The notes under the pieces were generated by a model. The model had not been told where the DNA came from. It saw nothing but the letters and a program-made list of their open reading frames with translations, and did no database searches. Made by a program: the position numbers and the translations under genes. From Bacillota bacterium (GTDB taxonomy: Bacteria; Bacillota; Sulfobacillia; Fermentithermobacillales; Fermentithermobacillaceae), in the NCBI GenBank assembly GCA_040766745.1, contig JAXGPX010000002.1, positions 317,248 to 381,247 of the forward strand: a stretch of DNA of 64,000 nucleotides, in the 5' to 3' direction. Of the stretch, positions 11,679 through 62,451 are shown in pieces; positions within the stretch are counted from its first letter, which is position 1, and each line of letters opens with the position of its first letter.

Positions 11679-12938
11679 CTATTCCTGGCCGTCTACCCTC
11701 TGTACATGGGCACCTATAGCCTGTAGTTTATCTACAATAGATTCATAGCCTCTCTCGATTATCTCAAGGCCATAGATTTCTGTTGTGCCTTCTGCAGACA
11801 GGCCTGCAACTACCAGGCTGGCTCCTGCCCTCAAGTCACTGGCGGTAACCGGAGATCCTGTAAGTTTCGGAGCGCCTTCAACAATAGCAGTCTTACCCTG
11901 GACTTTGACCTTTGCCCCCATCTTAACGAGCTCATTTAGGTGCCCAAGCCTGTTGTCGTACTGTGATTCCTGAATTACACTGACTCCCGTAGCCCGGGTG
12001 AGCACAGCTGTAAGTGGCTGTTGTGCATCTGTAGGAAAACCCGGATAGGGTAAAGTCTTTACATTAACGGGCCTGGGCCGCTCTGGCCCAACAACCCTGA
12101 CAAAATCACCGTTTTGCTCTATGGACGCCCCTGCCTCCTTGAGTTTTGCCACTACCGGCTCGAGGTGCTTCGTAATGACCCCCTGAATTTCTACATCACC
12201 GCCTGTGGCCACAGCCATCATCATATAGGTGGCGCCTTCCATATCGTCAGGAATAATCGAATGAGACGTTCCTTTGAGGCTTTTTACTCCCTTAATTCTG
12301 ATAATATCAGTACCGGCTCCGTGGATCCTTGCACCCATGGAATTAAGGCAGTTTGCCAGGTCCACTACATGTGGTTCCTTGGCTGCGTTCTCTATGATAG
12401 TAGTCCCCTTGGCCAGGCAGGCCGCAAGCATGATGTTTATTGTAGCCCCTACACTTGGCATATCCAGGTATAATGGGGCTCCTACCAGTTCATTGGCATA
12501 CAGCCTTACAACTCCGCCTTCCACTGAGGCTTCTGCCCCCAGAGCACGAAAACCCTTAAGGTGCTGATCAATAGGCCTTGGGCCGATATCGCACCCGCCA
12601 GGGAGCCCAACTTCAGCCTTACCAAACTTGGCAAGCAAGACACCCATAAGGTAATAAGAAGCCCTTAGTTTTCGGACCAAATCGTAAGGGGCCACATGAG
12701 AAGCAAATCCATTGGGTGAAATAGTCATAGTGTTCCGGTTCAAAGAAACAAGTGCGCCCAGATCCTGAAGGATCTGGGCAAACACTTTGACGTCACGTAT
12801 GGCAGGAACATTCTCAAGGGTAGACTGGCCTTCGCCTAGAAGGACAGCAGGTATTATGGCCACTGACGAATTCTTGGAACCTCCGATTTTGACTTCGCCT
12901 GTAAGCCTTCTTCTTCCCTCGATTACGAGTTTGGCCAT
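11679..12938 (-). CDS. murA: UDP-N-acetylglucosamine 1-carboxyvinyltransferase
   Basis: 419-aa ORF whose N-terminus MAKLVIEGRRRLTGEVKIGGSKNS is typical of MurA, with an EPSP-synthase fold. The active-site Cys region is present. Confidence 0.9.
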   Translation of the reverse strand: MAKLVIEGRRRLTGEVKIGGSKNSSVAIIPAVLLGEGQSTLENVPAIRDVKVFAQILQDLGALVSLNRNTMTISPNGFASHVAPYDLVRKLRASYYLMGVLLAKFGKAEVGLPGGCDIGPRPIDQHLKGFRALGAEASVEGGVVRLYANELVGAPLYLDMPSVGATINIMLAACLAKGTTIIENAAKEPHVVDLANCLNSMGARIHGAGTDIIRIKGVKSLKGTSHSIIPDDMEGATYMMMAVATGGDVEIQGVITKHLEPVVAKLKEAGASIEQNGDFVRVVGPERPRPVNVKTLPYPGFPTDAQQPLTAVLTRATGVSVIQESQYDNRLGHLNELVKMGAKVKVQGKTAIVEGAPKLTGSPVTASDLRAGASLVVAGLSAEGTTEIYGLEIIERGYESIVDKLQAIGAHVQRVDGQE

Positions 12939-12963
12939 ACGTTATATTCTCCGTTCTCCGGTT

Positions 12964-14433
12964 CTATTTGTAAAAACCCAACGGGTCTTTGGCTACGCCC
13001 TCTACGTGTACTTCAAAGTGAAGGTGGGGGCCTGTTGAGATGCCTGTGCTGCCTACATAACCGATTACCGCACCTTTCTCCACCTTATCTCCGGTCTTTA
13101 CTGCCATTTTGGACATATGGGCATACCAGGTTTGGGTGCTGCCGTGATCTACCTTGACGAGGTTTCCATATCCGCCGTTCCATCCGGCAAAGGTTACCAC
13201 CCCTGAGTCAGCAGCCTTGATTTCCGTACCCGAAGACGCTCCAATGTCAATCCCTCTGTGAAACGAACCCCAGCGCCATCCAAATTTCGAAGTAATTGTA
13301 CCCTGCACAGGCCAAACCAGTTCGCCCGATCCCATTGCAGGTACTTGCTTGTTTCCCCTGGTGAGTTTCTTGGGAACCGGATGGGAAATGACTGTTTCAG
13401 AAATTCTCGTACGGGAAACCTCTTTTCCGTTTTCCCTTACTACTTGCTCAATGATTTCCTTTTGGCCGCTTTTGCCCTGCTGGGTGACTGTCTCTTGCCA
13501 GGGCCACATCGACGAATCATGTGTTACCTGTACCGAGTACGGAATCGATTGAATGTAGGTGACTGTCTCACGGCTCGACAGAGTTACGTAGGGGTCCGGC
13601 ACAACCAAATTGAGGTTCTCTCCCTCTTTAATCAGATCACCCTTTACTTCAGGGTTTGCTTTCCTGAGGTCATCAACGCTCATTTGGTTGGCACGGGCAA
13701 TTGTCCAAAGGCTGTCTCCTCGCTGGACTGTGTAGCTTAACATCTTATCAGTGCCGCGAGTAAGGATCGTGCCTGCCTCGTCCCTATTTCTAAAGAGCGA
13801 AGTAGAAATCTCTTTTTCTGTTATGTCGATCTTCTCTTTGATCAGGACTTCGTCGCAAGTGGCATGGCCTGGTTCCACAATAGTCTTAACGTAGTTGTCG
13901 CGAAGATCTGAAAGGGTTCCCCTTGCCTCTTCCTCAGAACCCAGGGCTACCACGTCTTCTCCATCAATGCAGATAACGTAGCCTAATGCCACCAAAGAAA
14001 TTTTCTCTTTGAGGATCTGCCCCAAATCATCAGGCTCGCTCACTACTGAGTCTTTTTCCCATTTGACTTTCTCGTAAGCTATTTCGCTGGCAACCTTGAC
14101 CTCGGCGCCAATGCGAAAAGATTCTTCTTCTGATAGCCTGGCAACCATCTTACCTACAAGGTCTTTATCGTCGGTGTGCCCGATTACCTCGCCATCAACC
14201 ATAACAGCAAAGAGTTTTGCCCTGTTGGCATTTGCCGCAATCGCAACAACGCTGACCAGGAGTGCCATTATCACTCCTGTTGATATGTAGATAGCTTTTT
14301 TGTCAAACTTTGGCCGCCGAGAGTTCTGCCCTGGTGTTCTAGGGGCCTCTGGCGTCCTGCCCCGGGCCCGTGTCCTTTTTGGCCGCCGTCCCGGGTGCAA
14401 TTTCTCAGGGTGTAAGCTAGTTTCGTCCATCAT
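12964..14433 (-). CDS. membrane-anchored LysM + M23 (LytM) metallopeptidase
   Basis: Basic N-terminal tail, one TM helix, a LysM motif (YTVQRGDSLWTIA...LRKANP), and M23 catalytic motifs HRGIDI and GPHLHFEVH. Confidence 0.8.
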   Translation of the reverse strand: MMDETSLHPEKLHPGRRPKRTRARGRTPEAPRTPGQNSRRPKFDKKAIYISTGVIMALLVSVVAIAANANRAKLFAVMVDGEVIGHTDDKDLVGKMVARLSEEESFRIGAEVKVASEIAYEKVKWEKDSVVSEPDDLGQILKEKISLVALGYVICIDGEDVVALGSEEEARGTLSDLRDNYVKTIVEPGHATCDEVLIKEKIDITEKEISTSLFRNRDEAGTILTRGTDKMLSYTVQRGDSLWTIARANQMSVDDLRKANPEVKGDLIKEGENLNLVVPDPYVTLSSRETVTYIQSIPYSVQVTHDSSMWPWQETVTQQGKSGQKEIIEQVVRENGKEVSRTRISETVISHPVPKKLTRGNKQVPAMGSGELVWPVQGTITSKFGWRWGSFHRGIDIGASSGTEIKAADSGVVTFAGWNGGYGNLVKVDHGSTQTWYAHMSKMAVKTGDKVEKGAVIGYVGSTGISTGPHLHFEVHVEGVAKDPLGFYK

Positions 14434-14647
14434 TGTGCCGCACTCAAAAGCTTTGCTGATTTCCGACGGGTTTGTCTGTATCTCACCCTCTACAGTAGAA
14501 AGTGCAGCCTTCCCCTCCTTTCATAGCCTGATTCATATTTGTCCCCGGCTTGTACTACATGGGCCGGGTGAAAATTTGTACATGTTTTGCCTATCTTGGT
14601 TTTGCTCCACCAGAATGGGATATTCTATCCCGTTTACGAAATTCCTG

Positions 14648-16162
14648 CTAAACGCTTTTTATATATTGAACATAAAGGGCAAATTCTAGTCTAATTTTCA
14701 TAATGCGGCACGCCAGAGGGTCCGGATTCAACATGTCGCCAGTAGATGCAAGGGCCCCGGCATGGCAGCCCCCCCCACACAAGTACCTAGCCCAACATTT
14801 TATGCAGCTCTCTTTATTGGGGACACGAGAGTGATAAAACTTTCTGGCTATGTTCTGTCTCTTCAATATGTCAACATGTTTCTGGCCATGTTGTGAAACG
14901 CCAGGCGTGGTATCTGACGGAGAATCCAGTATGGTGCCTAGATTGAAATCCCCTTGTCCCACAAGCTGGTGGCATGGATAAATAGTACCCTCAGGAGTAA
15001 CCGCCAGGTACTCGTAACCGGCTCCGCAGCCTGTTACTCGCCGCTCCCGGCATACACCGCGGTCAAGTCCAAGCTCGAAATGGTAATAATCCATAGGGGC
15101 ATTATTCTTGTAGCAATCTTCCCAGAAAGCCGTAAGCTCAGAGTATGACTCTCTGACAATCGGAAGATCATCTTCGGTAATAGACCAGTCTGCATCTGCC
15201 CCTATTGCCGGTTCCAGAGACATTCTCCTGAAACCAAGTTCATACAGATACCTGGCATCCCTGTGGAAATCGAGATTGCAGCGTGTATAGGTGCCTCTCA
15301 CATAGTAATCCCGTCCGCCTCTAGATTCTACAAGCCTCTGGGCGTTGGCAACAGCAGGCCCATGGCTGAAAGAACCATCTCTGCAGCGCCGCATTTTGTC
15401 GTGAACTTCAGGCCTGCCATCAAGGCTGAGAATTACACTGATATTCCAGTCATTGAGGAAATCAATGATCTCCTTATTTAGCAGAGTGCAGTTAGTCGTT
15501 AGGGTAAATCGAAATTCCTTGCCGTGCCTCGGGCCCTCTTCGGCGGAATACAGAACTGCTTGCTTTACTGTATCAAATGCCAGAAGAGGTTCGCCCCCGA
15601 AAAAGTCCACATCAAGGTATCGCCTGCTGCCTGATGCGCCAATGAGGAAATCTATGGCCTTTTTGGCAGTTTCAGCACTCATGAGCATGGGTTTTCCCCC
15701 GAAACGCCCCTGGGCAGCAAAGCAATACCTGCAAACAAGGTTGCAGTCGTGGGCAATGTTGAGGCACATGGCCTTAACAGACGGTAGAGGTTCATCTATA
15801 GCAGGTTGGGGCATAGTTCCCCCTGGCTGGGTACCGGGGAATAAAAGGCTATTATCCTGGATTTCATCTTTGCCCCATAGTGATTTGCCGGCTTGCAGCT
15901 TTATTTCTTCCCATGCTGCCGCTATGTCCTCCCTAGAGAACGGCGGTGATAACACTGACATTGCTTGGTTCAGCTGGGCTTGTTCGTAGGCATTGTCACT
16001 GAAATGCTGAAAATCTATGCCTTGTTCCGAGCAATAATCAATGACGCCACGTCCTACAGAATCAAGCTTATGCAGTGAGCCGGTTGCTGCATCGTGGGCC
16101 AGGTCTATCCCTTTGATTCTGAAAGTATGAACTTGTTTCCCGTCTGCTACTTTTCCGGGCAT
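14648..16162 (-). CDS. radical SAM/SPASM peptide maturase (SCIFF maturase family)
   Basis: CNLVCRYC (CxxxCxxC) and a C-terminal SPASM Cys cluster (CIKCWARYLCGGGCHAG). It sits immediately downstream of the SCIFF peptide gene. The start is ambiguous: ATG at 16219 (AGGTG RBS) or 16162. Both overlap the peptide gene in another frame. Confidence 0.75.
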   Translation of the reverse strand: MPGKVADGKQVHTFRIKGIDLAHDAATGSLHKLDSVGRGVIDYCSEQGIDFQHFSDNAYEQAQLNQAMSVLSPPFSREDIAAAWEEIKLQAGKSLWGKDEIQDNSLLFPGTQPGGTMPQPAIDEPLPSVKAMCLNIAHDCNLVCRYCFAAQGRFGGKPMLMSAETAKKAIDFLIGASGSRRYLDVDFFGGEPLLAFDTVKQAVLYSAEEGPRHGKEFRFTLTTNCTLLNKEIIDFLNDWNISVILSLDGRPEVHDKMRRCRDGSFSHGPAVANAQRLVESRGGRDYYVRGTYTRCNLDFHRDARYLYELGFRRMSLEPAIGADADWSITEDDLPIVRESYSELTAFWEDCYKNNAPMDYYHFELGLDRGVCRERRVTGCGAGYEYLAVTPEGTIYPCHQLVGQGDFNLGTILDSPSDTTPGVSQHGQKHVDILKRQNIARKFYHSRVPNKESCIKCWARYLCGGGCHAGALASTGDMLNPDPLACRIMKIRLEFALYVQYIKSV

Positions 16163-16314
16163 GGCTGATTGGAAACTGTGCACGAAGTTTTGCATGCAGA
16201 CTGGCAAGAAGCCTGGCATGATTCACACCTGGGATTCTTCTTGCTCCAATCAGGGACAATCACCGGAACAACATGAATAGTTTGGCTTCTGGGGTCTCTA
16301 CTTGTGGTCTTCAT
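16147..16314 (-). CDS. SCIFF ribosomal peptide precursor (six cysteines in forty-five residues)
   Basis: Translation MKTTSRDPRSQTIHVVPVIVPDWSKKNPRCESCQASCQSACKTSCTVSNQPCPEK has the family signature C..C..SCQSACKTSCTV.NQ.C. GGGAGGAA lies 6 nt upstream of the ATG at 16314. The track ORF 16147..16335 begins at an upstream TTG. Confidence 0.85.
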   Translation of the reverse strand: MKTTSRDPRSQTIHVVPVIVPDWSKKNPRCESCQASCQSACKTSCTVSNQPCPEK

Positions 16315-16553
16315 TACCGGTTCCTCCCTAAACAACTATGTAAAAGTCTCAATACCATACACATACACTAACATACAGGTCGTATATAAAGATTATAAAG
16401 GACAATCAGCAGATATCAAGGTCAACAAGGCCGCCGGTTAAGTTTAAGTGATGGCAACTGTCCAAGATAATTAGCCTCAAAACCTGCAATTTCAGTTCTT
16501 ATAATTTCCCCCCACAGGTAAATATTATATTGTAAGGAGAGTGCTTCCAGACA

Positions 16554-17762
16554 ATGGACGGCGGACGATGCAAAATAGTGTATGTCTCCAAAGAAAAGCC
16601 GGCCTCCAGACAGAGGTATGGCCTGGTTGTCTTGGCGTTGTGTGCTGTGCTCGTTGGCGTGATGATCGGATTGTGGAGGACTCCCCCTCACGATTGGACT
16701 CAAAGGAACCTACCAGGCTTTACAGGTGGAATTCAAGACAGCTCCAAGAGTGGTTCCTCAAACCGTAACGGGGTTAACTCGATTGGTGGAGCAGGTAACA
16801 GTCAAGGGCCGGGCTATGCTAACGGCAGTTTGGGCCTGCCGGGATGTGATGGCCGGACAGTTGCTGAATCAGACTCCTCAGGCTCAGAAGTGCCTGCATT
16901 TGCTGATTCGCCTGAAGAACCGTCTTTGAGCCTCCCTGAGGTATTGATAATGATCCCTGCTGTTCAAAACCCTGGGGCCGGAGAAGCTGAAACCTCACCT
17001 TCGGTGACTGGTACCGTGAAACATCCGATCAGGCTTGTGTCGTACAAAGTACAGAAAGGGGACACCCTTACCCGAATAGCTGCCAAGTTCAACACCACTG
17101 TAAACTCAATTGTAGCCATCAACGGGCTTGCTGTTCCTGATAGCATCGCCCAGGGCATAGAGCTGGCAATAATGGAGAACGGGTCGGGTACAGTTTGCAG
17201 AGTGGAGAGAGGGGATACCCTTTCAGAAATATCCAGGGTTTACGGTGTTCCTGTCGACATAATTATGGAGGCAAATGACCTATCAGACCCGCAGAATCTT
17301 TCGCCAGGGCAGTTGCTGCTGCTTCCAGGAACAAAAATAACTGCAACCAGTCTTCAAGTGGCAGCGGCGTCAAGATCGTCAACTTTCTCATGGCCTGTGT
17401 CAGGAAAAGTTACAGACGGGTATGGGTGGAGAACGCACCCCATAACAGGTAAGCGTCAGTTTCACGAAGGGATAGACATAGCAGCCCAATCAGGAACTGC
17501 CGTAAGGGCAGCGGCAAGCGGGACAGTGACTTTTGTCGGCTGGTCAAACGGCTACGGCAGGCTTGTTGTAGTAAGCCACGGAGAGGGCTACGAGAGCAAG
17601 TACGGGCATCTCTCCCGTTATGCAGTGTCAAATGGAGCCAAAGTGTCTAAGGGCGATACACTGGGGTATGTAGGCCAGTCAGGCGATGCTACAGGCCCGC
17701 ATTTACATTTTGAAATCACGGTTTCGAAACAGTCAAAGAATCCCCGAAATTACTTGCCCTAG
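16554..17762 (+). CDS. LysM (x2) + M23 metallopeptidase
   Basis: N-terminal TM. Two LysM repeats (YKVQKGDTLTRIA..., CRVERGDTLSEIS...). M23 motifs HEGIDI and GPHLHFEI. Confidence 0.8.
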   Translation: MDGGRCKIVYVSKEKPASRQRYGLVVLALCAVLVGVMIGLWRTPPHDWTQRNLPGFTGGIQDSSKSGSSNRNGVNSIGGAGNSQGPGYANGSLGLPGCDGRTVAESDSSGSEVPAFADSPEEPSLSLPEVLIMIPAVQNPGAGEAETSPSVTGTVKHPIRLVSYKVQKGDTLTRIAAKFNTTVNSIVAINGLAVPDSIAQGIELAIMENGSGTVCRVERGDTLSEISRVYGVPVDIIMEANDLSDPQNLSPGQLLLLPGTKITATSLQVAAASRSSTFSWPVSGKVTDGYGWRTHPITGKRQFHEGIDIAAQSGTAVRAAASGTVTFVGWSNGYGRLVVVSHGEGYESKYGHLSRYAVSNGAKVSKGDTLGYVGQSGDATGPHLHFEITVSKQSKNPRNYLP

Positions 17763-17803
17763 ATCATCTGTGAGGCAGCAAACATGAGAGTGTGCCGGAG
17801 CAT

Positions 17804-17839
17804 GAAACGCGCGAACCGTCCCCGCGTTCCTTTGTTCAG
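17804..17839 (+). terminator. hairpin plus T-rich tract between convergent M23 gene and bofA; copy of a palindromic repeat element
   Basis: GAAACGCGCGAACCGTCCCCGCGTT (6-bp GC stem) followed by CCTTTGTT. The same core recurs at 22975-23045. Confidence 0.45.
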
Positions 17840-18099
17840 ATGAGGTATTTGACGGCAAGGAGCAAAATAGCGCCTGGGATCCCCAGGATGCCTAGGGTGA
17901 TTGCAGAGATAAGGTTAAGCCCCAGGTGAAACCCGAAAAATCCGCCGGCAATGTTCACAGCCCAAATGCCGAAGAAGGCAACGAAAGATCTGAGAAGTAC
18001 TCTACCGAGGCCTTTAAGCCTGGCGCCTATTGGACGGAGAAGTAGAAACATGACTAAAGAGGCCATGGCAATTCCGACAACCTCGTATATGCTCAACAC
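17836..18099 (-). CDS. bofA: pro-sigma-K processing inhibitor BofA
   Basis: 87 aa, two TM segments, conserved C-terminal ...ISAITLGILGIPGAILLLAVKYLI. It occupies the same position as bofA in B. subtilis (dnaX-yaaK-recR-yaaL-bofA). Confidence 0.75.
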   Translation of the reverse strand: MLSIYEVVGIAMASLVMFLLLRPIGARLKGLGRVLLRSFVAFFGIWAVNIAGGFFGFHLGLNLISAITLGILGIPGAILLLAVKYLI

Positions 18100-18158
18100 A
18101 AATCCCTCCTGAAAATACTCTTATGAACAGGAGGGTGATTATATTCGCAAAAGTGAGT

Positions 18159-18404
18159 TTACTGCCAAATGCTTTGGCCCTCTTGAGTGTAGTCTCTGAG
18201 CCTCTTGAGGTAATATGAGTATTTCCTTCGAGCTGCCTCCATAAGGAAAATAGCTTCGTCGATTCTGTCACTTTCGACAGCCTCATCAAAACATGAAGCT
18301 GCCACACAATAGTCTTTCTGAGCTTGCTCTAACGCTTTCATCAAATCAGACAGTTCTCTTTCGCAAGTATCCTCTTTCTTTGAAAACATTGGTAATGATA
18401 ACAT
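18159..18404 (-). CDS. yaaL: YaaL-like DUF2508 protein
   Basis: Small protein between recR and bofA, as in Bacillus. Start uncertain among M1, M13 and M18 of the 93-aa ORF. Confidence 0.55.
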   Translation of the reverse strand: MLSLPMFSKKEDTCERELSDLMKALEQAQKDYCVAASCFDEAVESDRIDEAIFLMEAARRKYSYYLKRLRDYTQEGQSIWQ

Positions 18405-21263: not shown

Positions 21264-21530
21264 GCCGTGCACCTATCTTCGAACGGCCTCCCCAGGCGAT
21301 ACCAACATGGCTGGCTCCAGCTAGGAACCCCTGCGGCACATGAGAAGGCTCGCTTACCGCTGCTTCCTCCCGGATCTGACGGGGTTTGCGAATTCTCATT
21401 GCGCAGGCCCCGGCTTTCAACGCTGCCCGCGCCGGCCAGACCCTAAAAAGGCTCGCCCTCGGATAGGCTTCAACCCCGCTATAGCGGATTGCGGGTTACA
21501 GGGCACCGCTAACTCCCCGTTTAGCACGGC
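21264..21530 (-). ncRNA. ffs: signal recognition particle RNA (long Bacillus-type scRNA/ffs, ~267 nt)
   Basis: The minus strand begins GCCGTGCTAAACGGGGAGTTAGCGGTGCCC and ends GGTGCACGGC, like B. subtilis scRNA. It contains the domain IV core CGTCAGATCCGGGAGGAAGCAGC. It lies directly upstream of dnaX, as in Bacillus. Confidence 0.85.
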
Positions 21531-21578: not shown

Positions 21579-21669
21579 TGGCGGAGGGAGTGGGATTTGA
21601 ACCCACGAGACGCATAACACGTCTACACGCTCTCCAGGCGTGCTCCTTCAGCCGCTCGGACATCCCTCC
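21579..21669 (-). tRNA. tRNA-Ser (anticodon GGA), long variable arm, CCA encoded
   Basis: Manual cloverleaf: GGAGGGA..anticodon loop CTGGAGA..TTCAAAT T-loop..CCA. Confidence 0.85.
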
Positions 21670-21689
21670 GCGTATGGCAGTATATCGAT

Positions 21690-21779
21690 TGGCGGAGGGG
21701 GTGGGATTTGAACCCACGAGGCGCTTGCACGCCTACCCGCTTTCGAGGCGGGCTCGTTCAGCCGCTCCGACACCCCTCC
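21690..21779 (-). tRNA. tRNA-Ser (anticodon CGA)
   Basis: Manual cloverleaf: GGAGGGG..anticodon loop CTCGAAA..long variable arm..CCA. Confidence 0.85.
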
Positions 21780-21906
21780 GGGCATCAAAAGTCCCCACCT
21801 GCCAGGACCTGCCGTACTTAGATTACTTATATCATTTTCAGTTTTCAAGTGCACGTGTTTTAATTTCGACAACACCAGTATTCAAAGTTTACCCTTTGAA
21901 AGGCTG

Positions 21907-22380
21907 TCAGGCACGGAGTTCCTGAAAGAACACTTCGAGAATGTTCCGGCATTCTTCTTCCCTGATTCCTACAGAAACGTCAACTCTGTGATTCAGCCTT
22001 GGATCCCCGGTAATATCCCACAAAGAGCCGCAAGCTCCTGTCTTAGGGTCTCTTGTTCCAACAACCAGCCTGGGGATCCGTGCCATTACTATTGCTCCGG
22101 CACACATGGGGCAAGGTTCAAGGGTTACATACATTGTGGCATCTAAAATGCGCCATCCTGTCTTGTACCGAGCCGCCTGGCGTATGGCAATTATCTCTGC
22201 GTGGGCTGTAGGATCGTTCAGAGTTTCTTTGAGATTGTGCCCCTTACCGATGACTTGGCCATCTCTTAGAATCACTGCCCCAACAGGTACTTCCCCTAAG
22301 GCATAAGCTTTTTTGGCCTCCTCAAGGGCAAGCTCCATACCGTATGAATCAATCCACTCTTTGCTTTTCAAACCATTCAA
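21907..22380 (-). CDS. tadA: tRNA-specific adenosine-34 deaminase
   Basis: CDA zinc motifs HAE...PCPMCAGA. Adjacent to tRNA genes and the SRP RNA, as in B. subtilis (yaaJ). Confidence 0.9.
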   Translation of the reverse strand: MNGLKSKEWIDSYGMELALEEAKKAYALGEVPVGAVILRDGQVIGKGHNLKETLNDPTAHAEIIAIRQAARYKTGWRILDATMYVTLEPCPMCAGAIVMARIPRLVVGTRDPKTGACGSLWDITGDPRLNHRVDVSVGIREEECRNILEVFFQELRA

Positions 22381-22417
22381 TTACTCAATCCACCAGCCTC
22401 GCTGGGCCTACAAAACT

Positions 22418-22496
22418 TGGTGCGCCCGGGAGGACTCGAACCTCCGGCAGACGGGGATTAGGAATCCCCCGCTCTATCCACCTGAGCTACGGGCGC
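22418..22496 (-). tRNA. tRNA-Arg (anticodon CCT); the fold I obtained has an atypical 7-nt variable region
   Basis: GCGCCCGTAGCTCAGGTGGATAGAGC..anticodon stem-loop GGGGA-TTCCTAA-TCCCC..GGAGG-TTCGAGT-CCTCC..CGGGCGCACCA. Confidence 0.7.
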
Positions 22497-22516
22497 AACG
22501 CTACTACTACGATTCA

Positions 22517-22593
22517 TGGTGCGCCCGGCGGGATTTGAACCCACAACCTACAGATCCGTAGTCTGTCGCTCTATCCAATTGAGCTACAGGCGC
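22517..22593 (-). tRNA. tRNA-Arg (anticodon ACG), the TadA substrate
   Basis: GCGCCTGTAGCTCAATTGGATAGAGC..ACAGA-CTACGGA-TCTGT..GTGGG-TTCAAAT-CCCGC..CGGGCGCACCA. Confidence 0.85.
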
Positions 22594-22607
22594 GCCTTAG
22601 ATTTAAG

Positions 22608-22697
22608 TGGCGGAGAGGGAGGGATTCGAACCCTCGAAGGAGTTGCCCCCTTAACGGTTTAGCAAACCGTCGCCCTCGGCCTCTAGGCGACCTCTCC
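22608..22697 (-). tRNA. tRNA-Ser (anticodon GCT)
   Basis: GGAGAGG..ACGGT-TTGCTAA-ACCGT..long variable arm..CCA. Confidence 0.85.
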
Positions 22698-22753
22698 GCA
22701 TCCAAAACCCTACTGCACTGAGTATATTACCACGTCTTGATTGTTGATGCCAG

Positions 22754-22844
22754 TGGCGGAGGGGGTGGGATTCGAACCCACGGAGGGCCAGTAACCCTCA
22801 ACGGTTTTCAAGACCGCCGCATTCAACCGCTCTGCCACCCCTCC
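22754..22844 (-). tRNA. tRNA-Ser (anticodon TGA)
   Basis: GGAGGGG..GCGGT-CTTGAAA-ACCGT..long variable arm..CCA. Confidence 0.85.
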
Positions 22845-47045: not shown

Positions 47046-47263
47046 CCTGTGAGCTTCTTATACGAGTAAGATGAGCATGGGTTTTATCAAGAAACGGATT
47101 CTAGGGGAAACACAACCGCCGTCTTGCTAGGGTGAAGCATATTCGCTACTGTATACAGCCAGATAGAAGGCGTTTTCTTCTCTTCATCGGGCAAGAGGCC
47201 AGTGCATAGAGTAGTCTGATTTGTCTCAAATATTTAACAATTACAGAAATGGTGGTCTTCATA

Positions 47264-48631
47264 ATGAGCAGAAACCTTGAAGAACTCTGGAATGACACAC
47301 TTTCTAGGGCTTCCTTGAGGTTCTCCAACCCGGGATTCATACAAAACTGGCTGAAAGATACCAGGCCAACAGATCTAAAAGGCGATATATTAACCGTAGC
47401 GGTGCCCAGCGAGTTCGCCAAGAACTGGATTGAGTCTAGGTATAAGGACGAGCTTGCCAGGGCTTGGAAAGAAACATACGGTAACCGTTCAGAACTAAGG
47501 TTCACTGTCAAGCAACCTGAGAAACTTGTGCCTGAGGCACTGTTTCCCCAAGAACAGGCTCCGGTGCAAAAGAGGAAACGCACATCTGATGACCGGCTAT
47601 CTCAGGTAAAAAGCCTTAATCCCAGGTATGTGTTTGAGAACTTCATTGTCGGGGCATCTAACAGGTTTGCCCATGCTGCAGCCCTGGCCGTTGCAGAGAG
47701 TCCCTCGAAAGCATATAACCCTCTTTTTTTGTATGGCGGAGTTGGCTTAGGGAAAACACATCTGATGCAAGCCATTGCCCACCATGTGTTTGTCCATCAC
47801 CAAAACCTTAAGATCTCCTATGTATCGTCGGAAACGTTCACAAACGAACTCATTCTTGCGATCCAGGAAGGCAGCACCCAGGAGTTTAGAAACCGTTACC
47901 GGAGCGCAGATATTCTCCTAATTGATGACATTCAATTTGTGGCAGGCAAAGATGCAACCCAGGAAGAATTCTTCCATACGTTCGATGCCCTGCATCAAGC
48001 CTCAAAACAAATAATCATCTCCTCGGACAGGCCCCCAAAGGAAATCTCGACTCTTGAAGAGCGGCTCAGAACACGATTTGAATGGGGCCTAATATGCGAC
48101 ATTCAACCACCTGACATCGAAACTCGCATAGCGATTTTGCGAAAGAAAGCAGAACTGGAAGGAAGGCAAGTACCCCTTGAGGTTTGCCAATATATAGCAG
48201 AAAGAATACCGTCAAATATCCGGGAACTGGAAGGTGCCTTAATCAGAGTTCTAGCATTTACAGCATTGCAAAAGAAAGAAGTCAATTTGCACATAGCCCA
48301 AGAAGTGCTAAGAGACTTGCTCCCTGAAAAAAGGGCGGTTCCAATATCTATCGATGCAATACAGGAGGTTGTCGCAGGCTACTACAATATTTCCATAAGC
48401 GATTTCTCGGCGAAAAGGCGGACACGCAACATTGCTTTTCCCAGGCAAGTGGCTATGTACCTTTGCCGGACTTTGACAGATTCCTCGTTGCCTCAGATAG
48501 GGCATAATTTCGGCGGCCGGGATCATACTACAGTCCTTCATGCCTGTTCAAAGATTGAATCCGAGAGGGAAACTAACCCTGACCTTGATCGCAGTCTAGA
48601 TGAATTGATTAAGCTGATTAGGGAGGGGTAA
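47264..48631 (+). CDS. dnaA: chromosomal replication initiator protein DnaA
   Basis: AAA+ motifs GGVGLGKTHL, domain IV HTH. Start taken at MSRNLEELWN (47264) rather than the upstream in-frame ATG at 47249. Confidence 0.95.
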   Translation: MSRNLEELWNDTLSRASLRFSNPGFIQNWLKDTRPTDLKGDILTVAVPSEFAKNWIESRYKDELARAWKETYGNRSELRFTVKQPEKLVPEALFPQEQAPVQKRKRTSDDRLSQVKSLNPRYVFENFIVGASNRFAHAAALAVAESPSKAYNPLFLYGGVGLGKTHLMQAIAHHVFVHHQNLKISYVSSETFTNELILAIQEGSTQEFRNRYRSADILLIDDIQFVAGKDATQEEFFHTFDALHQASKQIIISSDRPPKEISTLEERLRTRFEWGLICDIQPPDIETRIAILRKKAELEGRQVPLEVCQYIAERIPSNIRELEGALIRVLAFTALQKKEVNLHIAQEVLRDLLPEKRAVPISIDAIQEVVAGYYNISISDFSAKRRTRNIAFPRQVAMYLCRTLTDSSLPQIGHNFGGRDHTTVLHACSKIESERETNPDLDRSLDELIKLIREG

Positions 48632-48651
48632 AATCTTCCTGTGCAGAATTC

Positions 48652-48750
48652 TGTGGATGAAGTCTGGATTACCTGTTGAGGAGATGTGGATAAAATGGCA
48701 ATTTGGGAGCGGATCATCACTTATGCACAATCGTCCACATTTCATCCACA
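48652..48750. other. second DnaA-box cluster plus AT-rich unwinding region (dnaA-dnaN intergenic part of a bipartite oriC)
   Basis: TGTGGATGA, TGTGGATAA (perfect), TTATGCACA and TCATCCACA, followed by AT-rich 48836-48900 (ATATACACAATCGATATAGATAAGGATTGCTTTTTT). Confidence 0.7.
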
Positions 48751-48914
48751 CCTGTCTCCACAGGAGAAAAAGGCGTTCTACGTGGGTCAGAAGAGCCTTT
48801 TCAACAAACTCACAGCGCCTATTACTACTACTGACTTAAAGATATACACAATCGATATAGATAAGGATTGCTTTTTTCAGCAAGAATCTAGATAACAAAC
48901 AGGGAGGGTTACAT

Positions 48915-50051
48915 ATGCATCTGACAATAACAAGAGAACATCTGGCCTGGTTAGTGCAAACAGCTTCTCGTCCGATACCTCCCCGAAGCACTCTGCCTTC
49001 AATCAAGGGCTGCCTTATTGAAGCTCTTTCTGACAGGGTGGTTTTTTCAGGAACTAACCTGGATTGGGGAGTTAGGGTATCTGCACCTGCAAAAGTATCT
49101 TCTTCAGGCTCCCTTGTCGTATCGTCAAAGCTGCTTGAAGATATTGTAAGAACACTGTCGCTGCCGGAAGTTACTCTTTCCCTTGATGAATCAGCCTGGG
49201 CGTTAGTGGTCAAATCAGGAACGTCGGAAATGGTTCTGAATGCAGTTCCGGCCGACGATTTTCCTAAATGGCCTGAGCCTTCAGGAGGACAGCAAATTAC
49301 ACTAAAAGACGAAACATTCAGAGATCTTGTGAAAGTAGGAGCCACGTCAGCGGTAAACAATCCTGCAAGGCCATTGTGGGGTGCTTGCCTGCTTGATCTG
49401 TTAGGTGACAGAATCGTTCTTGTAAGTACAGATCAATTTGCCCTTTCCAGGGCACAAGCTTCTGCAAGCGTTGGTGAGTCGCGTGCCATTGTGCCTGCCA
49501 ATGTATTTCAGGAAATGGCACGCCTTAAGGATACAGAAGAAAGTGATGAGATTACTCTGGCCCTTTCAGACAGCCACTTGTATTTCTCATCAAAAAACCT
49601 ATCTTGCTTTACCCGTCTCATTGAAGGGCAATATTATGCTTACCAGCAGGTAATCCCTAAGTCATGCTCATCGACTGCTAAGGTGGCCACTGCCGATCTT
49701 GCAAGCGCTGCTTCAAGAGCGTCTATAGTGGCAAGTGAAGAAGATAGGGCAATGAGGATAATCCTTGACAAGAATGCCGGAACCCTTACTGTTAGGGCCG
49801 GTTCACCTGAGAAAGGGAAGATGGAGGAGGTACTGCCGGCTGAGGTCACCGGCGAGAATATTGAAATATGGGTTCAACACCGGTATGTACTGCAGGCATT
49901 AGGAAAGATTAGTGCCGGTGAGACAATGCTGGGAATGACAGGCCAGGTAAGCCCTATGCTCATTGAACCGGTTCAGGCGCAAGAAACACCAGGTGATTCA
50001 GTGATGTCCACCTTTGTAGTAATGCCAATGAGCCCTAAGGGAGCATTCTAG
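48915..50051 (+). CDS. dnaN: DNA polymerase III beta sliding clamp
   Basis: 378 aa with three-domain clamp architecture. AGGGAGGG RBS. Confidence 0.95.
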   Translation: MHLTITREHLAWLVQTASRPIPPRSTLPSIKGCLIEALSDRVVFSGTNLDWGVRVSAPAKVSSSGSLVVSSKLLEDIVRTLSLPEVTLSLDESAWALVVKSGTSEMVLNAVPADDFPKWPEPSGGQQITLKDETFRDLVKVGATSAVNNPARPLWGACLLDLLGDRIVLVSTDQFALSRAQASASVGESRAIVPANVFQEMARLKDTEESDEITLALSDSHLYFSSKNLSCFTRLIEGQYYAYQQVIPKSCSSTAKVATADLASAASRASIVASEEDRAMRIILDKNAGTLTVRAGSPEKGKMEEVLPAEVTGENIEIWVQHRYVLQALGKISAGETMLGMTGQVSPMLIEPVQAQETPGDSVMSTFVVMPMSPKGAF

Positions 50052-50054
50052 CCG

Positions 50055-51161
50055 TTGCAGTTTTCTTATGTTTACCTAAGACACTTCCGTAACTACCGGT
50101 ACCTGGAGCTTGAGCTGCCTCAAGGTGCATCTTTATTCATCGGCGATAATGCCCAGGGGAAAACCAATTTGCTTGAGGCCTGCTATTATGTGTCTTCTCT
50201 AAATTCGCCGAGATCCGAAAAAGAATCAGACCTGGCCTATTGGGGGGAGCAGTCATTTTCACTGGCTGCCCGGCTCGAAGGTGACGAAGAGTCTACTACA
50301 GTCAAAATCGAGACTGCTGTAACTCCGTCTGTTCGGCGTAGAATCGAGATTAACGACAGATACGCCAGGAGGCAGGACCTTTTGGCGTTGTTTCCTTGCG
50401 TCTACTTCTCTCCTGATGATCTATATATGATAAAGGGAAGTTCTGCATTAAGGCGAAAGTTCATTGATTCAATACTCTCACGCCAGGACCCGGTGTATGC
50501 CAAGGAACTGTCTCGATACAACGAAACAGTATCCAGGCGTAATATGGCCTTAAAGAAGGCCGGAATGGATGCGTCTTGGTTGAAAGCTCTTGAGAGTCTT
50601 GATGAGCTCCTGGTGAATTTTGGCTCCAGGGTACTCGAGAAACGGCTTCAACTCATTGAGAGACTGTCTGCCTTTGTCAAGACTACCTACGATTTCATCT
50701 CTACAGGGGATTGCGATGTAACATATGCTTCAACCATTGGAGAAATCGAGCCTGACTTAGGAGTTATCAAAGCCCAATTTGCAAAGAAACTTGGCGAGAT
50801 AAAGAGGGATGAGAGACTGCGGGGCATAACCCTTGCCGGCCCTCACAGAGATGAGATGGTAGTATCTTTTCAGGGAAAGACATTTAGGTACTTTGGGTCC
50901 CAGGGCCAGCAGCGTAGCATGGTTTTGGCTTTGAAAATGGCTGAAGCCAGAGCCCTTGAAGCAACGTTCAATACGAAGCCGGTTCTTCTTTTAGACGACG
51001 TTCTGTCAGAACTGGATTCAGAGAAGCGTCTGCAAGTTCTTTCGTTGTGCGACTTTGGGTACCAGGTCTTGATGACCTCAACAGAGATGCCTGAAGATAC
51101 CAGGCCAAGGTTTTCAGTATTTGTGGTAGAGAGAGGCCAAGTACGGCCGGCAAATAACTAG
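50055..51161 (+). CDS. recF: DNA replication and repair protein RecF
   Basis: Walker A GDNAQGKTN and the ABC signature region. TTG start 4 nt after the dnaN stop. Confidence 0.9.
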   Translation: MQFSYVYLRHFRNYRYLELELPQGASLFIGDNAQGKTNLLEACYYVSSLNSPRSEKESDLAYWGEQSFSLAARLEGDEESTTVKIETAVTPSVRRRIEINDRYARRQDLLALFPCVYFSPDDLYMIKGSSALRRKFIDSILSRQDPVYAKELSRYNETVSRRNMALKKAGMDASWLKALESLDELLVNFGSRVLEKRLQLIERLSAFVKTTYDFISTGDCDVTYASTIGEIEPDLGVIKAQFAKKLGEIKRDERLRGITLAGPHRDEMVVSFQGKTFRYFGSQGQQRSMVLALKMAEARALEATFNTKPVLLLDDVLSELDSEKRLQVLSLCDFGYQVLMTSTEMPEDTRPRFSVFVVERGQVRPANN

Positions 51162-51189
51162 CGGATAAATGGGAGAGTGAGGGCAAACT

Positions 51190-52110
51190 ATGGCACGTCC
51201 AGAGATTGTAGGCAATGTCTTGCAGAGATCCTTAGACGGCATGGGCCTTCTCCCAAAGGCCAGGCGATTCCAGGTTTTTGCCCTGTGGCCGAGAATCGTT
51301 GGAGATATTGCTCTAAATGCACGGCCTCGCAGGGTCGATGGCGATGTGTTGTATGTTGCCACGTCTTCGTCGATGTGGGCCCAGGAACTGAGCATGATGC
51401 GACGTAGGATTATATCCGAGATAAACAGGGCTTTAGGCGGCGATTACTTAAAAGATATTCGCTTTTCTGAGCACTTGTGGGGTATAACCGGTAATTATTC
51501 CGGCAGCGAAACTGATAATTTCCCTGACAAAGAATACAGAGAATTTATCTCTCAACCTGACTCAATAAGCAGGCCCGATTTGTCGAGAATCAAATTGCTC
51601 ATTGGAGGCGAACACGATTCCACGCTTTCCTTCACTTTCCAGAAGTTTGCTGTTACTATGGAAAAGCGGAAAAAATATCTTGTGAGAAAAGGTTATCAGA
51701 AGTGCCCTACGTGTGGATATATTTATCAACCGGGACGTAAATGCCCAAGTTGCAGAGCAAAAGAGGAATTTTACAATCACCGCAAGATAATCTCCATTCT
51801 TGAGAAACACCCTGAAACGTCAGACACTACCTTGTCTGTAAGTACAGGCATAACTCAGAGACACGTGTTTGAACGGGCAAGGGAAGAGCTGGATTCAAGA
51901 TGGTACCGCACTGTAATAAGTGGCGTCTTCAAGGCCGGCTCCGGGCAGTTGTCCGGTAACGAGAAAGCCCAATTACAGGGTTTGATAAAGAAGCTGGCGA
52001 GTTTACGCAGCGGGAAACCTGAGCATGAACTAACACAACAGGATCTTAACAAAGTTCTGGGAAAACGTTTTTCGGGTTTGCTGAAACATCAGCGTTGGAG
52101 AAAAAAGTAG
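51190..52110 (+). CDS. DUF721 (YaaB-like, RecF-associated) protein with long C-terminal extension containing a CxxC...CxxC zinc ribbon
   Basis: The N-terminal ~100 aa match DUF721 (LPKARRFQVFALWPRIVGDIALNARPRRVDGDVLYVATSSSMWAQEL). The extension holds CPTCGYIYQPGRKCPSCR. It sits in the conserved recF-gyrB slot. Confidence 0.7.
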   Translation: MARPEIVGNVLQRSLDGMGLLPKARRFQVFALWPRIVGDIALNARPRRVDGDVLYVATSSSMWAQELSMMRRRIISEINRALGGDYLKDIRFSEHLWGITGNYSGSETDNFPDKEYREFISQPDSISRPDLSRIKLLIGGEHDSTLSFTFQKFAVTMEKRKKYLVRKGYQKCPTCGYIYQPGRKCPSCRAKEEFYNHRKIISILEKHPETSDTTLSVSTGITQRHVFERAREELDSRWYRTVISGVFKAGSGQLSGNEKAQLQGLIKKLASLRSGKPEHELTQQDLNKVLGKRFSGLLKHQRWRKK

Positions 52111-52186
52111 TCTGTTTTCTCTGTGAGGGTGTGTTACTCCAATGGCATCTTCATCGAACATAGATTCGCCACACGAACTATGCTAA

Positions 52187-54130
<1,944 letters not shown>

Positions 54131-54147
54131 GGAAAGGGGCTTTACGC

Positions 54148-56580
54148 ATGACAGATATCGCTCGGAGGTTGGTTTCAACACCTATAGAAGAAGAAATGAA
54201 ACGGTCTTACATCGACTACTCCATGAGTGTAATTGTTTCCCGCGCCCTGCCCGATGTGCGTGACGGCCTGAAACCCGTTCAGAGAAGAATTATCTACTCA
54301 ATGGATGAGTTAGGGGTAAGGCATGATAAGCCGCATAAGAAATCTGCAAGGCTTGTTGGCGAGGCCATGGGAAAGTACCATCCCCACGGAGACTCGGCCA
54401 TATATGATGCCCTGGTTAGGATGGCACAGCCATTCAATATGAGATATCCCCTTGTTGACGGCCACGGAAACTTTGGGTCGGTTGACGGAGACTCACCGGC
54501 GGCCATGCGGTACACAGAGGCGAGATTAACAGCTATTGCAGAAGAACTTCTTGTAGATCTGGATAAAGAAACCGTAGATTTTGTGCCAAACTTTGATGAC
54601 AGCCTGAAGGAACCTGCTGTTCTCCCTTCAAGAATCCCTAATCTTATGGTTAACGGGTCTGCCGGAATTGCCGTTGGCATGGCTACAAATATCCCGCCCC
54701 ATAACCTTGGAGAAACAGTAGATGCACTAATTGCGCTTATAGATAATCCGGAACTAGGGCCTTTGGACCTTATGGAGTACATTAAAGCCCCTGACTTTCC
54801 TACAGGCGGCCTAATAGTGGGGTTGGGCCCTGTGAGATCTTTGTACACTACCGGTAGGGGAGTAATGAAACTCAGGGCTAAGACCAGGATTGAACGAGAC
54901 AAGAAAAACGGCAAGCAGTGGATTGTTGTTGATGAGCTTCCTTACCAGGTCAACAAAGCCCGGCTTATTGAGAACATAGCAGATTTGGTAAGAGACAAGA
55001 AGATTCAGGGTGTAACAGACTTAAGAGATGAGAGTGACAAGAGCGGCCTCAGAGTCGTTATAGAGGTGCGGAAGGATGTAGAAGCCAAGGTTGTTCTTAA
55101 CCAGCTTTTCAAGCATACAACCTTGGAAACAAGCTTTGGAGGCATAATGCTAGCCCTGGTTAACGGGCGGCCTGAGGTGCTTGATTTAAGGGCCATGCTT
55201 TCACACTACATCTCCCACAGGGAAGAGGTAGTTACCAGAAGGACCAGATACGAGCTGAGGAAGGCCGAAGAAAGGGCTCACATTCTTGCGGGCCTTGAGA
55301 TTGCCCTTGCCAACCTTGATGAAGTAATCGCCATAATCAGAAGTTCCCAAAACGGCGAAGAAGCCCGTAACAGGCTCATGGAGAGGTTTGTTCTTGACGA
55401 GATACAGGCAAAAGCCATTCTGGATATGAGGCTTGAGCGGCTTACCGGCCTTGAGAGAGACAAGATCATCGAAGAACGCAGGGCTTTGCTGAAGGAAATT
55501 GAGTACCTAAGGGCGGTCCTCGGTTCAGAAAAGATGATTCTTGGCATAGTTAAGAAGGAACTGGAGGATGTGAAAAAGAAATATGCAGACCCACGGCGTA
55601 CTCGCATCCTGGCCAAGGCCGAAGAGATTTCGGAAGAGGAACTTATTATAGAGCAGGAAGTTTCGGTGATTTTGACAGGCATGGGGTATATCAAGAGAAT
55701 GCCCCTAAACATATACCGGAGCCAGAGAAGAGGCGGGCTGGGCGCTACAGCCATGCAGACCAGGGACGAGGACTGGGTGGAAAAGGTTGTATCCACTACG
55801 ACCCGTGAATCCTTGCTGCTGTTTACTTCCCATGGAAAAGCCTACTGGCTAAAGGTTTTTGAGATACCTGAAGCTGGAAAACAGGCAAAGGGGCACCTGA
55901 TGTCCAGGCTAATTGCCCTTGATAAGGGCGAAAGGGTCACTGCACTTATACCTGTCCCTGCAAAGCCGGAGACGGCAGGAGACTTGTTCTTCGTAACCAA
56001 GCAGGGAATGTGCAAGAGGACTCCGTTCTCTGAATACTTAACACAGAGAAAAACGGGACTCAGGGCCATAAATCTTAGGACAGGAGATTCGCTGATTCTC
56101 GCCCGCCTGGCGCAAGACGGTGATGAGGTACTTATCGGTACTTCATTCGGTAAGGCCTTAAGAATGAAAGTAGATGATGTTAGGACTATGGGCCGGACTG
56201 CCACCGGTGTGATTGGAATAAGGCTTGCCAAGGGCGACTACGTTGTCGGGGCCGATCCGGTTACGCCTGACGCAAAAGTGCTATTGGTGAGTGAATACGG
56301 ATACGGCAAGATAACAAAAGTCGGCGGTTTTCCTCTTCAGGGAAGGGGAGGAAAAGGAGTCATTGCCCTCAAGGTTTCAGAAAAGAGCGGGCCTCTGGCT
56401 ATTATGCGATTGGTTTCGCCCCAAGATGAAGAGGCTTTGCTCATTACTGCAGAGGGAGTGGCAATAAGGATAGACTTGTCTGAGATCAAAGTAGCCCGCA
56501 GGGCCACTTTGGGCGTTAGGCTTATGAAAATCGAGCCTAACGACAGGCTATCGGCTTGCAGCATTCTTGAAGGAGAATAA
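54148..56580 (+). CDS. gyrA: DNA gyrase subunit A
   Basis: Active-site Tyr region ([10 protein letters not shown]), QRDR and the C-terminal beta-pinwheel repeats. 810 aa. Confidence 0.95.
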
Positions 56581-62290: not shown

Positions 62291-62365
62291 GCGAGAGTAG
62301 TTTAGTGGTAGAACATCGGCTTCCCAAGCCGAGGGCCGCGGGTTCGAATCCCGTCTCTCGCTCCA
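62291..62365 (+). tRNA. tRNA-Gly (anticodon CCC)
   Basis: GCGAGAGTAGTTTAGTGGTAGAAC..TCGGC-TTCCCAA-GCCGA..GCGGG-TTCGAAT-CCCGT-CTCTCGC-T-CCA. Confidence 0.85.
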
Positions 62366-62376
62366 AATTTTTAAGA

Positions 62377-62451
62377 GCCGGCGTAGCTCAACGGCAGAGC
62401 AACGGTTTCGTAAACCGTAGGTTAAGGGTTCGATTCCCTTCGCCGGCTCCA
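62377..62451 (+). tRNA. tRNA-Thr (anticodon CGT)
   Basis: GCCGGCGTAGCTCAACGGCAGAGC..ACGGT-TTCGTAA-ACCGT..AAGGG-TTCGATT-CCCTT-CGCCGGC-T-CCA. Confidence 0.85.

Follow-up and report, generated by a model that had tools for sequence, protein, structure and literature searches.

An scfA-scfB (SCIFF ranthipeptide) pair with a probable coding overlap in place of the usual hairpin spacer in Ca. Fermentithermobacillaceae-like Bacillota

SCIFF peptides are near universal in Clostridia-type Bacillota, and their biological role is unsettled. The gene pair considered here, scfA-scfB, which is predicted to encode a SCIFF precursor and its radical-SAM/SPASM maturase, lies on the minus strand of a 64,000-nt stretch of DNA from a Bacillota bacterium (GenBank assembly GCA_040766745.1, contig JAXGPX010000002.1, positions 317,248 to 381,247), hereafter called the window. 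The family was first defined bioinformatically, and its thioether chemistry was characterised later with CteB and Tte1186; for solventogenic clostridia, involvement in quorum sensing and in the expression of sporulation genes has been suggested (PMC8326336, PMC8102284, PMC7470986). The statement in an earlier note on this DNA that SCIFF function is still unknown is nearly right, except that the thioether chemistry is known and that a quorum-sensing role has been put forward (PMC8326336, PMC8102284).

The closest described systems are CteA/CteB of Clostridium (Acetivibrio) thermocellum (PDB 5WGG/5WHY) and Tte1186a/Tte1186 of Caldanaerobacter subterraneus, the first SCIFF to be characterised in vitro (PMC8326336). 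The proteins of the window belong to the same families as CteA and CteB, TIGR03973 and TIGR03974, and the precursor gene similarly stands directly upstream of the maturase gene. The core of CteA is identical (...SCQSACKTSCTV.NQ.C), including the donor cysteine and the acceptor threonine residues. In contrast, the CteA leader (KHIKT[LI]N...GGCGEC) differs from that of the window, which is longer and divergent, with a variable N-terminal extension before HxxP[VI]IxPDW, and the peptide of the window ends in NQPCPEK. ScfB is also approximately 50 residues longer than CteB; the linker that follows its N-terminal domain is longer, and its SPASM region carries an insert. Lastly, the CteA and CteB genes are set apart by a hairpin-containing spacer, whereas those of the window appear to overlap by 16 nt. 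Tte1186a/Tte1186 is of the same family, with the same predicted thioether from the fourth cysteine to a threonine (PMC8326336), and the differences in leader and operon listed for CteA/CteB are extended to it here without direct sequence comparison.

The locus is most probably an ordinary scfA-scfB pair of a Ca. Fermentithermobacillaceae-like Bacillota, in which scfB starts at ATG 16162; the lineage is placed near Candidatus Fermentithermobacillaceae by the names that close homologues bear. The SCIFF peptide and its radical-SAM maturase form a known clostridial system, of which this is a real but ordinary copy, and the same proteins already bear these names in GenBank. An exact-sequence look-up retrieved the identical 55-aa peptide from a sibling Bacillota metagenome-assembled genome (MAG) as MGI6164188.1, 'six-cysteine ranthipeptide SCIFF', and the next gene there, according to the NCBI annotation, is MGI6164189.1, a 504-aa 'thioether cross-link-forming SCIFF peptide maturase'. 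As read from the sequence, the locus departs from the canonical form in three respects, which leave the kind of system unchanged: the leader is longer and has diverged, the maturase is somewhat larger, and the junction of the genes is collapsed and overlapping. The new descriptive point, of modest interest, is the lineage-specific architecture of the operon, in which an overlap takes the place of the hairpin spacer.

The scfA reading frame (16147..16314, minus strand) runs from ATG 16314 to a TAG at 16149-16147, and its translation is the 55-aa peptide quoted in the earlier note. As that note had proposed, ATG 16314 rather than TTG 16335 is the start, since the Shine-Dalgarno sequence GGGAGGAA (16321..16328, minus strand) is found 6 nt upstream of the ATG; with a start at TTG 16335 it would fall within the coding region, which disfavors that codon. 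Further upstream is a sigma-70-like promoter candidate, TTGATA-16 nt-TATAAT (16392..16419, minus strand), that matches the consensus at 11 of 12 positions and is the best-scoring site across 12800-18200; the total of promoter-like sites in that region is no higher than in shuffled sequences, and the candidate is to be taken as a consensus match only. The SCIFF identity of the peptide was confirmed by profile searches, as it scored above the curated cutoffs both of TIGR03973 (E=3.9e-15, 55.5 bits for a cutoff of 50, far beyond chance) and of PF13165 (55.3 bits for a cutoff of 27), the alignments covering residues 25-52, i.e., the core only. Its cysteines, C30, C33, C37, C41, C45 and C52, are spaced as C-x2-C-x3-C-x3-C-x3-C-x6-C. 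The invariant core is shared by 43 SCIFF homologues, and in an alignment of 23 sequences, made up of ScfA and 22 homologues, the SCQSACKTSCTV block, all six cysteines, T43 and T46 are invariant. The core (C30-C52) is preceded by a leader motif spanning H14-W23, whose H14-V-V-P-V-I aligns with canonical KHIKT[LI], a segment in which the profile itself has no match. In the same alignment, the subclade to which this locus belongs is characterized by the variable N-terminal extension, by the HxxP[VI]IxPDW leader aligned to KHIKT[LI]N and by the NQPCPEK tail, and its peptides are 49-61 aa long, compared with approximately 45 residues for canonical SCIFF.

The downstream gene, scfB (14648..16162, minus strand), codes for a 504-aa radical-SAM/SPASM protein that is predicted to form thioethers. 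Its earlier description as a SCIFF maturase is borne out by TIGR03974, the SCIFF-maturase equivalog model, which it matches with 447.7 bits (cutoff 425) over profile positions 1-449 of 451, so that the family hidden Markov model (HMM) covers its N-terminus from profile position 1. Among proteins of solved structure, CteB (PDB 5WGG) is the nearest to it, with an alignment over residues 128-499 (E=1.4e-98). The PF04055 and TIGR04085 SPASM models match it as well, and the cysteines of the radical-SAM CxxxCxxC motif (C140, C144, C147) and of the SPASM region (C371, C379, C397, C453, C456, C462, C466, C485) are invariant in an alignment of 24 sequences. The radical-SAM/SPASM fold is common to the PapB/freyrasin, QhpD, nif11-type and 'not_ScfB' orphan maturases, whose models give partial matches to ScfB that remain far below their respective cutoffs (NF047865, 242 bits for 340; TIGR03906, 199 bits for 453; NF040492, 378.9 bits for 855). 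An orphan maturase or that of another ranthipeptide was ruled out because only TIGR03974 was passed, the 'not_ScfB' model NF040492 failed, and a true ScfA is encoded next to it.

Where scfB starts determines how the two genes meet. The longest maturase frame (14648-16219) lies in a different frame from scfA and offers five in-frame starts, at 16219 (ATG), 16207 (TTG), 16195 (ATG), 16183 (GTG) and 16162 (ATG), i.e., at -73, -61, -49, -37 and -16 when counted from the base after the scfA stop. Past 16162, no in-frame ATG, GTG or TTG is found in the first 80 codons of the maturase frame, and the TIGR03974 alignment opens at residue 30 of the 523-aa open reading frame (ORF), 10 codons after the methionine (M20) encoded by ATG 16162. 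With canonical start codons, the two genes must therefore overlap by 16 nt or more, and a maturase start downstream of 16147, which would abolish the overlap, is excluded. The overlaps of 73 nt and 16 nt previously given for starts at 16219 and 16162 are correct, and of these two candidates the comparison with relatives supports 16162 and not 16219, where the frame is closed in relatives and the AGGTG and the ATG are not conserved. The start of scfB is hence very probably ATG 16162, which is formed from the Pro51-Cys52 codons (CCA TGC) of scfA and would give an overlap that extends over 16147..16162.

Among 12 distinct loci of the subclade, the codon at -16 is ATG in five, GTG in five (one of them at -19, in a locus whose peptide has one more residue), TTG in one and CTG in one. 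In the CTG locus a stop follows two codons later, and a GTG that overlaps the TGA stop of scfA (GTGA, a 4-nt overlap) is used instead. In L087, L091 and L092 (L numbers denote the loci compared), the frame is closed directly upstream and no later start is available, which leaves the -16 codon as the sole possible canonical start. In a total of six loci (L001, L087, L089, L090, L091 and L092), a stop near the maturase start bars any equivalent of 16219; it is located 22 nt before the scfA stop, except in L089, where it is found at -10, just after the -16 codon. The segment 16163..16219 (minus strand) is thus a probable over-extension of the 523-aa maturase call, its frame being closed in relatives, and is most likely untranslated as part of the maturase.

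The overlapping junction appears to be a trait of this lineage. Subclade loci were gathered by exact-protein look-ups and by one degenerate-pattern scan (7 loci), and the canonical set consisted of 80 SCIFF loci (L005-L084) among the matches listed, from species-representative genomes at identities of no more than 45%; the maturase gene was callable in 74 of them, both genes were readable in 70, and 68 spacers were folded. An overlap of 4-16 nt (19 in one case) between scfA and scfB is found in all 12 distinct subclade loci, whereas in none of the 70 canonical loci is a maturase start available before the scfA stop. Measured from the scfA stop, the conserved VHxF codon lies 14-17 nt away in 13 subclade loci, compared with a median of 98.5 nt in the 70 canonical loci (minimum 11 nt, next smallest 45 nt). 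Most canonical spacers (55/68) fold more stably than shuffles that kept mononucleotide but not dinucleotide content (z<-2; median z -3.1), and many of their hairpins are GC-rich and followed by a U-run, as in terminators or attenuators. In contrast, the junction of the window has no significant RNA structure relative to shuffles (z=-0.8), and a structure that would sequester the start was rejected on those grounds. No Shine-Dalgarno sequence or purine-rich motif is found upstream of ATG 16162. All subclade loci examined similarly lack both the spacer and a Shine-Dalgarno sequence for scfB, while canonical loci keep the hairpin spacer and the Shine-Dalgarno sequence, and stop-start overlaps of the GTGA/TTGA type occur in L086, L088 and L089.

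The very stable hairpin found in almost every canonical scfA-scfB spacer resembles an attenuator or processing element general to SCIFF operons, and no Rfam family that covers it was seen here.

A model of how the locus works can be proposed from these features and by analogy with the described systems. ScfA would be transcribed from its own sigma-70-like promoter candidate and translated by means of its canonical Shine-Dalgarno sequence. The N-terminal recognition domain of ScfB would then bind the HVVPVIVPDW leader motif, aligned with canonical KHIKTLN, and the enzyme, by means of S-adenosylmethionine (SAM) and [4Fe-4S] clusters, would link the fourth cysteine, C41, through a thioether to a side-chain carbon of T46 or T43. 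The predicted donor and both potential acceptors are present in ScfA. In vitro work indicated T46 as the acceptor and co-expression work T43, a discrepancy that a review notes as unresolved (PMC8326336). The spacer of approximately 100 nt with its hairpin, present in most SCIFF loci, would have been lost in this lineage, and ribosomes that end scfA most likely restart at the nearby AUG, so that ScfB would be made by termination-reinitiation and a low enzyme level would be tied to a high precursor level. Translational coupling, as suggested in the earlier note, can reasonably be proposed, given that the overlap is conserved and that scfB lacks a Shine-Dalgarno sequence. Coupling by termination-reinitiation, which would take over from the usual hairpin in setting the ratio of precursor to enzyme, is the most likely mechanism and slightly more probable than not. 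As in translationally coupled overlapping pairs (the ATGA/GTGA type and short upstream restarts), the downstream gene starts 4-16 nt before the upstream stop in these loci, has no Shine-Dalgarno sequence and tolerates weak starts; however, classic coupled pairs overlap by 1 or 4 nt, and the probable 16-nt back-step here is longer. The subclade lends itself naturally to studies of how operons for ribosomally made modified peptides set the ratio of precursor to enzyme.

Other explanations can be weighed against this reading. That the small ORF is no gene but a chance cysteine-rich frame can hardly be entertained: its small size alone speaks for it, and it is refuted by the scores with curated HMMs, by the homologues that share the invariant core and by the adjoining cognate maturase, to which the promoter candidate and the ribosome-binding site are added. 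A maturase of 523 aa that starts at ATG 16219, driven by AGGTG and overlapping scfA by 73 nt, is improbable and was rejected on comparative grounds. It corresponds to the longest ORF, it has AGGTG 6 nt upstream, most automatic calls of the protein collection have the 523-aa form, and the same frame is open in several relatives. Yet the TIGR03974 alignment begins only at residue 30, the curated NCBI pipeline picked 504 aa for the same sequence, and with a stop in frame in six distinct relatives the extension cannot be conserved. The ATG and the AGGTG arise from scfA codons (Ser-Cys and Arg-Cys, respectively); Arg29 is not conserved, relatives have TCG TGC at the Ser-Cys position, and the apparent conservation of the extension is a +1-frame shadow of the invariant SCIFF core. 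Several observations nevertheless weigh against the reading preferred here. The Shine-Dalgarno-like AGGTG before 16219 is better than what precedes 16162, where there is none. The presence of NTG at -16 is within chance, as three of the four Pro codons followed by a Cys codon generate a start (11/12 loci, P about 0.16), and since it is not evidence in itself, the argument for the start is founded on the closed frames and on the lack of alternative starts. The shuffles behind the spacer z scores are subject to the limit on base composition given above. As to the recognition step of the model, the leader is outside the profile match, which begins at residue 25, and its recognition by ScfB is assumed from the alignment; the N-terminal domain of ScfB matches the N-terminus of CteB weakly (5.4 bits). 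With the start at 16162, scfB might also be translated independently of scfA, either by de novo initiation at an AUG that lacks a Shine-Dalgarno sequence or on an internal transcript, and the overlap would then be no more than genome compaction. Bacillota do translate some genes without Shine-Dalgarno sequences, the start is not sequestered by structure, and short gene overlaps are common in compact operons. This explanation is possible but doubtful, given that spacer and Shine-Dalgarno sequence are missing at every subclade locus examined and kept in canonical loci, and that the tolerance of weak starts (GTG, TTG) at -16, together with the GTGA/TTGA overlaps, is a classic signature of reinitiation.

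The last alternative concerns the surroundings of the pair, which the earlier note had taken to suggest a cell-wall or sporulation context. Two predicted membrane-anchored peptidoglycan metalloendopeptidases flank scfAB, LysM-G5-M23 protein M23A downstream of scfB (12964..14433, minus strand) and 2xLysM-M23 protein M23B, divergent from scfA (16554..17762, plus strand). If scfAB formed a functional module with them, and possibly with murA or bofA, mature SCIFF would act in cell-wall remodeling or sporulation. For this, one can cite the scfB-M23A(-...murA) arrangement, which every subclade locus has and which recurs in 7-8 of the 80 canonical loci despite their differing upstream genes, locus L097, whose SCIFF is canonical in the same M23B / scfA-scfB-M23A arrangement, an scfB-M23A gap of just 30 nt in L092, and the down-regulation of sporulation genes in a C. 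beijerinckii scf mutant (PMC8102284). The distribution of canonical contexts points the other way. Out of 74 loci, 39 are found in queA-tgt-yajC-small membrane protein (about 130 aa)-scfA-scfB-secDF-recJ-apt-relA and 28 elsewhere; in 7, scfB is followed by an orthologue of the LysM-G5-M23 protein, a TPR protein, a Peptidase_MA_2 protein and murA, a count that becomes 8 with L011 (phmmer). The latter loci have different genes upstream and belong to Syntrophomonadaceae, Pelotomaculum and other Bacillota MAGs. A reciprocal test with six distant M23A orthologues (36-44% identity) yielded the M23B / scfA-scfB-M23A arrangement in one (L097, where scfA and scfB do not overlap); L096 and L099 have M23A...murA without SCIFF, L099 with htrA and PBP1 as well, in L100 the divergent M23B and M23A genes directly adjoin, and L095 and L098 are unrelated contexts. 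Moreover, the entire backbone (dnaX-ybaB-recR-DUF2508-bofA ... murA-htrA-PBP1-speE) is conserved, clearly unrelated genes included, and a conserved promoter-like box past the scfB stop points to separate transcription of M23A. A functional module is therefore unlikely, and so, to a like degree, is the broader idea that scfAB is a working part of a LysM-M23/murA cassette in deep-branching Bacillota (this clade, Syntrophomonadaceae, Pelotomaculum). If true, mature SCIFF would modulate cell-wall hydrolysis or be a sporulation-linked envelope signal rather than a diffusible quorum signal, and the exchange of the attenuator hairpin for an overlap of the coding regions would signal a change towards tightly stoichiometric production. 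The M23/LysM linkage thus does recur across SCIFF neighborhoods, in the subclade and in a few lineages, but it is facultative, most canonical loci being elsewhere. Because of this, and since the whole neighborhood is a conserved housekeeping backbone, it is weak evidence on function, and as a lineage-restricted context clue it adds little. Judged by its distribution, scfAB seems to be a facultative resident of an envelope and housekeeping backbone that is itself conserved, and the M23 peptidases, bofA and murA are probably its neighbors rather than its partners.

The SCIFF pair is embedded in a Sec-accessory operon in most Clostridia (39/74 loci).

The gene order in the window is tadA, tRNAs, signal recognition particle (SRP) RNA, dnaX, ybaB, recR, DUF2508, bofA, M23B (opposite strand), scfA, scfB, M23A, murA, htrA-like, PBP1 (opposite strand), and speE, and it is kept in clade members whose maturases are only approximately 50% identical. 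M23A directly follows scfB in every subclade locus with enough flanking sequence, and the position of M23B is kept in L085, L086, L088, L089 and L092-L094 as well as in canonical-SCIFF locus L097. The elements named in the earlier note are all found at the positions given there, and the two LysM-M23 flanks and the adjoining bofA are real, as judged from Pfam domains (PF01476, PF07501 and PF01551 in M23A) and from PF07441, respectively. Both peptidases carry a hydrophobic segment at the N-terminus, their HxxxD/HxH zinc motifs (FHRGID...PHLHFE, FHEGID...PHLHFE) are intact, and PF01551 scores 120.1 and 117.6 bits in the two. They were rejected as SpoIIQ-, SpoIVFA-, DipM-, NlpD- or EnvC-type proteins, with scores far below the equivalog cutoffs (50-58 bits for SpoIIQ, cutoff 250), and their sequences justify a generic M23 assignment only. 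The bofA-family gene (17836..18099, minus strand) is assigned by PF07441 (56.6 bits), its TIGR02862 score of 48.2 bits being just under the cutoff of 53.35. Downstream of M23A, murA (11679..12938, minus strand), of the UDP-N-acetylglucosamine 1-carboxyvinyltransferase family, is recognized by PF00275 in the syntenic genes and by phmmer (E down to 1e-221). The bofA and M23B genes are convergent and 74 nt apart, and their pairing is conserved across the clade (L085, L086, L092-L094). BofA of Bacillus acts together with SpoIVFA, a LytM-domain protein.

Directly past the scfB stop is a promoter-like site (TTAGCA-18-TAGAAT, 9/12; 14620..14651, minus strand), whose -10-like box, GGGATAGAATAT (14620-14631), recurs at this position in L001, L090, L091, L094 and L013. 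The conservation of the box suggests that M23A has a separate promoter. A second conserved non-coding motif, GAAAGGAGGGnnAGGCTGCACTT (14500-14522, minus strand), lies approximately 85 nt upstream of the M23A ATG and resembles a ribosome-binding site; no conserved ORF follows it. In relatives, the motifs of the scfB-M23A spacer map to 5437 and 5612 in L001, to 6289 and 6454 in L091, to 8448 in L094 and to 9371 in L013, and they are present in L090. The 36-40-aa ORFs called after the maturase in relatives are not genes, since their sequences differ between near-identical loci. Rfam gave no matches even at E<=1 in the scfB-M23A spacer or the region upstream of scfA, and none at gathering score in the scfAB part of the window.

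The practical value of these results is for annotation, the correct pair being 55 aa and 504 aa. Within the protein collection, a 10.9-kb sibling contig alone has the exact 55-aa product on record, and the 693-kb contig that bears the identical 523-aa maturase call does not; the 62-aa TTG form of the peptide has no record anywhere in the collection. The claim that the peptide gene had been missed in annotation is hence plausible, and a likely cause is the 73-nt overlap of the over-extended maturase call with the peptide gene, which would leave scfA uncalled. That SCIFF is easily overlooked in structural annotation was pointed out by Haft and Haft (PMC5300114). Many database maturase entries of the clade (homologues P0045, P0050, P0051, P0054, P0063, P0088) have spurious, conserved-looking N-terminal extensions (MPGLLPISVQDV...). 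Such extensions are a +1-frame shadow of the invariant SCIFF core, and they are likely to cause a systematic loss of scfA calls. Separately, a 403-aa cyanobacterial CCA tRNA nucleotidyltransferase (P0196) is grouped in a 90%-identity cluster of 52-aa SCIFF peptides, probably a clustering artefact.

Farther away in the window, a large bacterial SRP RNA (203.6 bits) is found upstream of dnaX, beside a cluster of six tRNA genes (21265-21529 and 21582-22844, minus strand), and two further tRNA genes lie near 62.3 kb (62291-62448, plus strand). On the plus strand, the ORFs of 460, 378, 368, 306, 644 and 810 aa in 47249-56580 look, by size and order, like a dnaA-dnaN-...-gyrB-gyrA origin, which would place the SCIFF locus approximately 30 kb from the origin of replication.

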